Source: Chrysomallon squamiferum
Taxonomy: Eukaryota > Animalia > Mollusca
Direction: 5' to 3'
DNA: 64,000 nt
NCBI GenBank assembly: GCA_012295275.1
Contig: CM022678.1
Coordinates: forward strand, 10,478,001-10,542,000
Positions within the stretch are counted from its first letter, which is position 1. Each line of letters begins with the position of its first letter. Positions 12,501-15,500 of the stretch are shown here, one piece after another. Made by a program: the position numbers and the translations under genes. The notes under the pieces were generated by a model, which saw only the letters and a list, made by a program, of their open reading frames with translations, did no database searches and was not told the DNA's origin.

Positions 12501-15500
12501 GCAGAAACGATAGCTAAATCTTCAGTTATGTCGACAACAGAATACTGATCTGTCTTGTTCTCAACTGTAATTGTTTTCTGTACTTGTAACTGTCAGATTG
12601 GTGCACCCTAAGAAGGCCTCGAATACAGTGGAGGCAGATTACCATCAGAAGATCATCATGACCTTCCAGCTGAGAGACAAAACAACCTCGGAACTCTTGA
12701 CAGCCCACCAGGTTTGATTAATATTGCACCATCTATAATAGTTTGTTATTCTAGTTCTAGCAGGTGTTTTTCTTTTTATTATTATTATTTTCTTAATCTG
12801 CATCATCCCAGCTAAATAATTTTCAAAATTCATAGCTAATAGTATTGTCATTATCGCTTTTTCAACCTTGCTGTTCTTGGTGAGAACCTCTAAAACCTGT
12901 TGGATATCTGTAGCTCAAAATTAGATGTAAAGAATCTACATGAATTTTATTAAATTAAAAAAAAATTAACCCAAATATTTTCTTTAGATATATTCTACTA
13001 AAAATGCTAATAGCTGTGGCTGAACCTTTTTTTTTTTTTTACTGTTTTAATCTGTCACTGGGTTTATTCCTTTTTTTTTTTTTTTTTTTTTTTTTAGTTT
13101 TTTTATATTAATGTATATATAATATATATTTTAGAAAGATGTTTATATCAACAATTTGTTCTGCTGACATCTGAAATTTCTTTGTTTGCATAAGTCTTTG
13201 CCTCAGTTGAATTTTCATAATTATATTTTTAACTGGATTTAAGAGATTGTGTTCTGACAGATTATTTTATTTACAGACATTTGTCAGACTGACAAACATG
13301 CAGACAAAGCAGGAGATTATCTTTGTGACAGAAACAGATGATTCTCGTATCTACAAGTTTGATCTTGTAAGTTTATTTTAGTTGTAAAATTAAATAGTTC
13401 TTTCCTCTTTCATTAAATATCAACAAGTAGTGTCTTTGTAATATTTATCCTGTTGTTAAATAGATATTTAAAAATGAAATTGCTTATTTATCAAGATAAA
13501 AATAACTGATGACATCTCTAAAATGATTTTGACCTATGATGATGTTTATGCACCACTCCAAATCTCATGATTATGAAGATTTTGCATCCCACCAAAATTT
13601 GTCTGAGGTTTCTCATTTTAAGAAAGGTTTAATTACAGATATGTAGTTTTATTATATTTTATAAATTAAATGTACATCTCAACAAATATTCACATTATAC
13701 ATTTTATTTTTTGTTCAGGTTCTATAAGATTGGAAATATTCATATTAAATATGTCTGATACATTTGTTTTTGTTTCAGGATGTTGGATCGAGTGCCAAGG
13801 ACTTTGGACATCTTTCTGGCAAATACAGCATGGAGTTGATAATCGGTGATGCTGTTATTGAGAATCCATTCTCGTGGCATTTGGTAATCATATTATTTTA
13901 ATTAATAACCCTTTATTTTATTAGACAAATAGACATTCCAAACATAACTAGATCTATTTAGAAATGTGATTCATTAGGTTTATATTTTTAAAAATGCAGT
14001 GGTGTCATTAGTACTGTATAAGGTGCATATTTTGTTAAGTATCTGGTTTTGCTGTATAATCTGCATACATAAACAGGGCAGCATCCATAGTCATATTCTT
14101 GTTTTGCTATTGCTTCAGAAACATTTGTAAAACATTTTTAAGATTGTTAATTGAATGGTTACCATTTCAGGCATTTTAACATGTTCATGTTACTTTTTAC
14201 ATAATGGTAAAAGTGTTTGACTAGTTATTCCCAATGTTGACATCCAGAGATCTTGGTTCATCCTTGTTTTCTCTGGCTCTGTCTTTGTGGCCAGTGGGAG
14301 CTGAACGTCTCACTGAGACTTGAGGTGTATTCCCTTTCCACAACATTGGAGATAAACCTGGTCCCCTGATTTCATCAGGTGTGGACCAGACCCTGCATAT
14401 TCCATAAACTTTCCAGAGTCAGATTGACAATTACTGGGGAGACAAGCCATGCAGTGTACACTTCATTAATTGTAAAAAAATTATTTTGAGAAAACTGTTG
14501 AAATATCATTTACTTGAAAATATCAGAAATAATTAAATGATATACATGCACACTTTGGAAGATTGTTAGTTTATTTAGATTTAAAAATACATCTCAAAAT
14601 CTGTTAATTACATTAAATAGTCTTTATTGAGTCAACACTGAATACATTAAAAAATATTTTTAAAAACTAAATAAATATTTGGGAAAGCAATTTAAGTATT
14701 ATCATTTGAACCATGTAATGTATTAATTTTTGTTCTGTCCTATAAAACTGGAAGTATTCATATTAAATGTGTTCAGTACCTAAGATCCAGATTACATTTC
14801 AGTAGTTCAGTTAAGCTTCTTATTCATGTTAATCTACATTTTATATCATCTTTAATAAATTTACATAGTAACAGATTATTAGAAAACACTGACCACATAT
14901 TTCAGAAGAATAATGTAACTCATTTAGTTTTGTATTTGTCCTTTAAATACCAATGTTGAAATCCACAAAACTGGGCTTCTTAGTTCAGATTTTTTTTTTT
15001 TTTTTTTTTTTTTTTTTTTTTTTTTTAAATGGGAATTGTTTACCCTATAGGGGGCTTGATGTTCCTTAGCAACAACATTGGAGAGAAACTTGACCCTGGT
15101 TTTAATCGGTGGGGGTCTGTCCCTGCATAGTTTAGTTTCTTCTCAGCCATGTCACAGTTACTGGGGAGCTTTGTAATGCAGAGAACATTTTTTTTGTAAT
15201 GAAGAATAATAAATCACTTGTGTCTGTAAAATTTGGCTAACAAACTCTAAATATATAACCTTTTTAAATCAAATAAGATATCTTTGTAATTAAGATAATT
15301 TTGTAATCATAGTCAATCAACTGCATCCTTTTTTGTCCATATCTGTGAAAGGTGTGAATTATACTGTAATTATCTTGTATTTTTTTAGTGAAACATCTTT
15401 GCAAACCTTTTGATTTTAATGGTTTATTATAAGTCAATCAAACATGTCCACATGTTCATTACAGATCTACTGTTCATCTACTGTTCATCCAATCACAATT

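Follow-up and report, generated by a model that had tools for sequence, protein, structure and literature searches.

Whether an H/ACA RNA that takes part in the processing of ribosomal RNA (rRNA) can turn into one that modifies it is the question raised by a diverged copy of U17 in the snail Chrysomallon squamiferum. U17/snR30, an essential RNA needed for the cleavage of 18S pre-rRNA, is the standard example of a non-modifying H/ACA RNA. The copy lies in a stretch of 64,000 nt (the window: assembly GCA_012295275.1, contig CM022678.1, positions 10,478,001 to 10,542,000, numbered here from its first base), within an intron of RPN2 (ribophorin II). We suggest that it is a U17 duplicate that has kept the stems and boxes of an H/ACA RNA, has lost the m1 and m2 elements of U17, and may now guide pseudouridylation of an 18S uridine (human U1186, presumably yeast 1129) in an element that we take to be helix 27; to us the chances for and against this look about even. 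To our knowledge U17 is not a pseudouridylation guide, and in the literature searched, from which most subscription papers were out of reach, neither a U17 paralog turned guide nor a study of mollusc U17 was found.

Identity of the copy and pattern of its changes

The original prediction placed the copy between two canonical ones and called for a search with the SNORA73 (U17) model of Rfam (RF00045). In that search the copy aligns over the full length of the model with 36.7 bits (E 7e-6), short of the gathering score of 74, and its position between the canonical copies c5 and c6 is confirmed (Table 1). The copy, called the variant below, is a real SNORA73 paralog. The covariance-model search of the window also finds six canonical copies, starting at 5209, 6248, 7620, 10608, 14231 and 15562, with scores of 131.7-141.5 bits. 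These are 95-99% identical to one another in pairwise comparison; the variant is 62-64% identical to them. It is present in a second individual as well, in which a 270-nt contig (run X4, depth 144) spans 15032-15289; X4 is the one run covering the variant among four same-species DNA runs, the gaps in the others (X1, X2 and X5) being uninformative. The substitutions listed within the variant RNA in X4 are G15115A, T15150C and A15156G, and both pocket strands are unchanged.

The three-domain architecture with boxes H and ACA is present in the variant. The outer 5' stem (P1), box H, both 3' stems and box ACA are found as predicted. Besides P1 and the two 3' stems, P3b, P3c and the internal hairpin bear out the wider claim that the structure is kept; P2 and P3a, broken by a run of U, do not, and the folding of the RNA as a whole is on a par with that of shuffles (see below). 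The P3b/P3c arm differs from the minimum free energy (MFE) fold of that stretch. A proposed CCCT/AGGG hairpin needs a 2-nt loop as written; CCCU/GGGG around AUA is feasible. In the 3' hairpin the lower stem has end pair probabilities of 0.99 and 0.83, the upper stem carries two changes, pairing being preserved in both, and the canonical apical stem is lost.

Pairs were counted by hand mapping, in comparison with a canonical copy, in the four helices whose alignment is gap-free (P1, P3b, and the lower and upper 3' stems). P2, P3a, the internal hairpin and P3c were left out of the count, the apparently compensatory changes of the last two being alignment-dependent or shared with a related organism (organism B). 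In the gap-free helices 26 of 26 pairs are retained with 4 of 52 bases changed; simulated random decay retains all 26 pairs in 1, 13 and 82 per 100,000 runs at per-site rates of 0.33, 0.25 and 0.20, respectively. The changed bases are concentrated in the pocket (13 of 17; the stems on either side have 2 of 28, Fisher P 3e-6), a region in which the six canonical copies vary among themselves at one position only. The variant is not a case of simple decay, and selection on its stems holds.

Contigs of canonical U17 were found in organism B (runs X10 and X11) at about 90%, and none over the variant at 80%, a gap that is uninformative, three same-species runs having missed the variant also. These contigs differ from c6 at nine listed sites, eight of which are fixed in all six local copies. 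At those eight sites the variant has the base of organism B in four, the local base in one and neither in three. Sharing four of eight bases has P 0.01-0.11 for an assumed per-site chance of 0.12-0.25, and suggests that the variant left the homogenised U17 pool long ago. The G of box H at 15085, which the original prediction had taken for a change in the variant, and two Cs of P3c are probably retained ancestral states and not changes made in the variant, because they are shared with canonical U17 of organism B.

In U17/snR30, expansion segment 6 (ES6) of 18S rRNA is bound by m1 and m2 at the base of the pocket, an inverted mode of binding that is held to block modification (excerpts of PMC7601244 and PMC2664660). 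SNORA73 is listed without a canonical target in the accessible part of PMC4914119. In the variant, 3 of 7 bases of m1 and 4 of 7 of m2 are changed, and here the earlier claim was right. With the ES6 segments of a database 18S (contig L010), the canonical m1 and m2 of the snail pair at -8.7 and -7.1 kcal/mol; the variant strands reach -4.3 and -5.5 kcal/mol in other registers only, pairing in the m1/m2 register being lost. The apical stem, which is essential for processing in yeast snR30 (excerpt of PMC2664660), is changed in the variant. The variant no longer shows the pairing of m1/m2 with rm1/rm2 of ES6 by which U17 is defined. As for the canonical copies, their m1/m2 depart slightly from the yeast/vertebrate consensus, and m1 forms 8 bp with the ES6 segment of L010.

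Complementarity of the pocket to 18S rRNA

Both pocket strands were scanned against 1,844 U positions in surrogate rRNAs, the 18S being that of contig L001 and the 5.8S and large subunit (LSU) rRNAs those of L010. The surrogates are database eukaryotic rDNA not known to be from C. squamiferum, the LSU coming from a non-matching eukaryote, and their contigs were retrieved by the target motif, which is therefore present by construction (a 24-nt segment is exact in 10 contigs). The best of the 1,844 sites is the helix-27 uridine, with 8 bp (one G-U) upstream and 6 bp downstream at -21.4 kcal/mol, or -19.0 kcal/mol in the 8+5 register that leaves U-G unpaired. The next-best site has -13.9 kcal/mol, and the best site of the canonical pocket -11.3 kcal/mol. 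The complementarity noticed earlier is real in database 18S sequences. Its right arm, proposed as 9 bp, comes to 8 bp on the free strand, the ninth pair taking A15176 of the lower stem; of its left arm of 5-6 bp, the 6-bp form leaves only the U unpaired, the canonical U-N geometry being 8+5.

In null comparisons by energy with contiguous helices, four models gave 103/11,038, 137/11,116, 142/16,547 and 86/17,292 (0.5-1.2%). Null rates by Watson-Crick count were 51/21,655 to 351/54,952 (0.2-0.6%) with 18S as the only target, and 0.7-2.2% over rRNA as a whole. The match is roughly a 1-in-100 event; joined to the retained stems it is good evidence, not proof. Counting offsets from the target in L001, there is a U at five of the six human positions of Taoka 2018 (1174, 1177, 1232, 1238 and 1244; 1248 is C), which supports the predicted numbering as U1186. 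U1186 is absent from the guide table for small nucleolar RNAs (snoRNAs) of PMC6984369, the supplement of which was searched, and U1186 with '18S' and 'pseudouridine' gave no match in the literature searched.

A guide of the H/ACA type is expected to leave a U-N unpaired at the pocket top and to flank it with at least 8 bp in total, no fewer than 3 of them on either side (excerpt of PMC7991803). With database 18S, the variant is predicted to form 8+5 bp around such an unpaired U-N. Both of its arms begin at the pocket top, which is the guide-type position (excerpts of PMC2664660 and PMC7991803). Since loss of the unpaired base after the target U impairs modification (excerpt of PMC9122591), 8+5 is the likelier register. 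For the productive register the C15139-G15168 pair, whose probability is 0.57 in the free hairpin, has to open; ACA is then 17 nt from the top of the pocket. Both this distance and that of 14 nt to an AGA had been predicted and are borne out. AGA is among the ACA-box variants (excerpt of PMC7991803). Starting at 15182, at a distance of exactly 14 nt from the pocket top, the tail reads ANANNA, which is absent from this register in all six canonical copies; dyskerin could dock there, to judge from a single base change.

A working guide would arise and act as follows. With 18S processing covered by the six canonical copies, the variant would be free to change. It would be trimmed from the RPN2 intron and would bind dyskerin, NOP10, NHP2 and GAR1. 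Release of G15168 from the bottom pair of the upper stem would allow 15168-15175 to form 8 bp with 18S 5' of the target U, and 15134-15138 would form 5 bp with the bases after U-G, the U and G staying unpaired at the pocket top. The docking site of dyskerin would be ACA, if a distance of 17 nt is tolerated, or else the H-box-like motif that overlaps it and lies at the textbook 14 nt; the target U would be isomerised, perhaps only partly. The variant is probably an old, selectively constrained U17 paralog whose pocket pairs as that of a pseudouridylation guide does. The fuller proposal is that a non-modifying U17/snR30 copy was naturally converted to a working guide when its complementarity moved from the bottom of the pocket to the top and a 3' H-box-like motif was gained that restored the 14-nt ruler, and that it guides a helix-27 pseudouridine without a guide in the vertebrate table searched. 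This we offer tentatively, as falling somewhat short of an even chance.

A pocket in the 5' domain, 15 nt from box H, was rejected as a further candidate: it reaches no more than 8 Watson-Crick pairs, and the null for the 3' pocket averages about 9. Inspection by eye shows the canonical m2 (14445-14450, + strand) to be complementary also to 18S at human 1173-1178, six positions that immediately precede the target arm of the variant on the 5' side, with the register shifted by three bases; this may be chance or, possibly, the starting point for the switch.

The ten contigs with eukaryotic 18S rDNA (L001-L010) are filed under bacterial genomes. Two partial copies (L007 and L008) are in one 58-kb contig of a mussel-symbiont assembly, and L010 is a whole rDNA unit with a group I intron. 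The 18S target motif had no matches in viral contigs. A pattern for the variant 3' hairpin had two matches in metagenomes, which are one near-identical coding stretch with no Rfam match, and was set aside as chance; read by eye, the stretch is presumably bacterial flagellin.

Alternative explanations

Several results weigh against a constrained and working guide. Given only four stem changes, all four preserve pairing in 1.5% of simulations, which means that the stem signal comes mostly from how few the stem changes are. P2 and P3a lose 5 of their 15 pairs to the 37-U run. The whole-RNA MFE is no better than that of shuffles (z -0.45; canonical c5, z -2.69), 15028-15190 has z +0.84, and simulated decay of c5 folds as well in 182/1,500 runs (intron-biased) or 772/1,500 (uniform). 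Global MFE was rejected as a test of retained structure, being without discrimination from shuffles and simulated decay. The X4 allele G15115A falls in the internal-hairpin stem and alters it, and three listed substitutions in 159 nt of the variant are about the flanking-intron rate. For the 18S match, strict U-N geometry over all rRNA gives nulls of 398/17,882 and 291/21,068 (2.2% and 1.4%), and 211/8,380 shuffles (2.5%) when bulges are allowed; its significance is about 1% before allowing for the initial screen, which selected such matches, and the targets are L001 and L010, not the snail's own rRNAs. The 17 nt to ACA exceed the usual 14-16 nt (excerpts of PMC7991803 and bioRxiv 569061); human SNORA22 works at 18 nt (PMC6984369, section 10). 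As to the modification itself, pseudouridine 1186 of human 18S was reported as newly found by mass spectrometry (excerpt of bioRxiv 2023.11.23.568509), but the table of Taoka 2018 runs from 1177 to 1232 without it; the human evidence is conflicting, one mass-spectrometry study standing against absence from another map. It had been argued that random decay should not preserve the helices and also build such a match. This is borne out in part: the stems are under selection, m1/m2 are lost and the helix-27 match is better than chance, with the reservation that this match is significant at about 1% only.

The match could be due to chance, the variant being either an orphan H/ACA RNA whose structure is constrained or a copy of U17 in slow decay that gene conversion has patched. 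Null rates of 0.2-2.5% are not low when so many windows are scanned, the U/G-rich composition of both new strands makes pairing easy, and the spacing is non-canonical; the apical part is also heavily changed, and the unpaired regions may be saturated. However, the best site is ahead of the next by 7.5 kcal/mol with both arms abutting the upper stem, and the conserved blocks, on both strands of three separate stems and in the boxes, are unlikely to come from conversion tracts. We hold this explanation to be unlikely. Decay enters differently if the guide, re-programmed in an ancestor, is dying out in this lineage and has ceased to be made or to act, as might be read from the U run in the 5' domain, the weaker internal hairpin, and a stem-disturbing allele (G15115A) with no drop in polymorphism. 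Against this, the boxes, P1 and both 3' stems are intact, and yeast snR30 is viable with the 5' or the internal hairpin deleted singly (excerpt of PMC7601244). The window has 13 runs of A or T of at least 18 nt, the 37-U run exceeding all the others; such runs being common, it may be recent or of uncertain length. A dying guide seems to us distinctly unlikely.

Binding to helix 27 might also serve an end other than modification, if the variant were a transient folding chaperone that holds helix 27 open, which would be the non-catalytic mode of U17 at a new site. The parent RNA is a non-modifying chaperone (PMC7601244), pairing of the guide arms (-9.4 and -4.4 kcal/mol) is stronger than that within the helix-27 hairpin (-1.4 kcal/mol), and the 17-nt spacing could misplace the target U. 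Yet the pairing is contiguous, distal and centred on a U, whereas snR30 pairs basally with two distant motifs (PMC2664660), and the apical element, the yeast equivalent of which is required for processing, is altered. We regard a chaperone as slightly less likely still, and a re-programmed guide, at the strength given at the outset, remains our preferred explanation.

Genomic setting and comparison with known RNAs

The six canonical copies are all intronic in RPN2, on the + strand, and occupy five introns. RPN2 exon 2 has 97% identity to the protein of Gigantopelta aegis, and 73-78% to other gastropods among the top matches; the other exons match the G. aegis protein less well. In RNA contigs of two runs (X8 and X9) the exon matched at 13779-13883 is spliced to that at 16134-16216, which puts c5, the variant and c6 in one 2.25-kb intron. 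These contigs cover host exon only, neither the variant nor c6, and have no bearing on expression. Coordinates are collected in Table 1.

Table 1. Features of the variant and of the RPN2 intron that holds it (window coordinates)
Feature	Position	Strand	Basis
RPN2 host intron with canonical c5, variant and canonical c6	13884..16133	+	tblastn exons; RNA contigs of runs X8 and X9 span the exon junction
Canonical U17 copy c5	14231..14463	+	141.5 bits
Diverged U17/SNORA73 paralog (variant), predicted RNA of about 241 nt	14950..15190	+	Rfam SNORA73 model 1-219
P1, outer 5'-domain stem, 5' strand, pairs with 15073-15081	14950..14958	+	identical to canonical c5; in MFE fold
Substitute hairpin (14969-75 with 14979-85), out of register with canonical P2	14969..14985	+	MFE fold
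37-nt U run in place of P2 3' strand and P3a 5' strand	14990..15026	+	sequence
P3b (15031-36 with 15061-66) and P3c (15043-46 with 15050-53)	15031..15066	+	hand pair mapping
Box H (ANANNA)	15082..15087	+	sequence
Internal hairpin	15092..15117	+	MFE -9.1 kcal/mol, canonical -18.8
3' hairpin lower stem, 5' strand, pairs with 15176-15181	15123..15128	+	identical to canonical
Left pocket strand (m1 in canonical copies); 5-6 bp predicted with 18S on the 3' side of target U	15129..15139	+	complementarity
Upper stem of the 3' hairpin (15140-46 with 15161-67) plus changed apical part	15140..15167	+	pair mapping
Right pocket strand (m2 in canonical copies); 8 bp (one G-U) predicted with 18S on the 5' side of target U	15168..15175	+	complementarity
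Tail: ACA box 15185-87; overlapping ANANNA from 15182	15182..15187	+	sequence
Canonical U17 copy c6	15562..15794	+	140 bits

The 95-99% identity of the six copies in the RPN2 introns (5209-15794, +) suggests concerted evolution, and in organism B the total depth suggests several U17 copies there also. U17 is reported in Trichoplax, with RPN2 not mentioned in the accessible part of the source (PMC2655684). Short exact U17 fragments flank copy c4, one of 13 nt from the 5' end at 10184-10196 (+) and one of 15 nt with m2 and the lower stem at 10986-11000 (+). Both fall below reporting in a covariance model built from seven copies, and that model found no further U17 relics in the window (next match 10.5 bits).

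Three C/D-box snoRNA copies are also in RPN2 introns (9981-10056, 11583-11659 and 13531-13610, all +). Their best Rfam match is snoZ221/R21b at 41.3, 40.5 and 27.5 bits, none of which reaches the cut-off of 44. The guide element they carry is complementary to 18S at about human 1325-1334, which would presumably point to Gm1328; the third copy has a degraded D' box. Another RPN2 intron has a weak C/D-like match to snoZ175 at 16706-16787 (+; 27.6 bits, E 1.6). Upstream of RPN2, a GC-richer, coding-looking stretch at about 2140-2715 (-) may mark a divergent neighbour gene.

The standing explanation for why U17/snR30 does not modify is its inverted, basal pairing (excerpt of PMC7601244). A natural paralog flipped to distal pairing, if this is what the variant is, would test that explanation directly, and would show that pocket changes alone can turn a processing H/ACA RNA into a modifying one or the reverse. 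The variant also names a testable modification of helix 27, where the human evidence conflicts. Target switching is common among guide snoRNAs (PMC6984369), which limits the surprise.

The variant shares with U17/snR30/SNORA73 (RF00045) homology over the whole model, a multi-branched 5' domain, box H, an internal hairpin, a 3' hairpin with a pocket, and ACA, and it is intronic beside six canonical copies. It differs from that family in its changed m1/m2, complementarity at the pocket top, altered apical stem and score below the family cut-off. Compared to H/ACA pseudouridylation guides, such as human SNORA40 for pseudouridine 1174 of 18S, or SNORA22 with its 18-nt spacing, the variant is a predicted guide on a U17 scaffold, with no convincing target for a 5' pocket and a spacing of 17 nt. 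In the vertebrate target-switched paralogs SNORA10/SNORA64 and SNORA2/SNORA34 (PMC6984369), as is proposed here, a duplicate diverges and gains a new antisense element. Those pairs, however, switch between modification sites, whereas the parent of the variant is a processing RNA without a known modification role. Yeast snR37, a bifunctional H/ACA RNA (excerpt of PMC13015370), likewise brings scaffolding and pseudouridylation together within one RNA class. In that case one RNA does both jobs, unlike the variant, which would be a paralog converting from one to the other.
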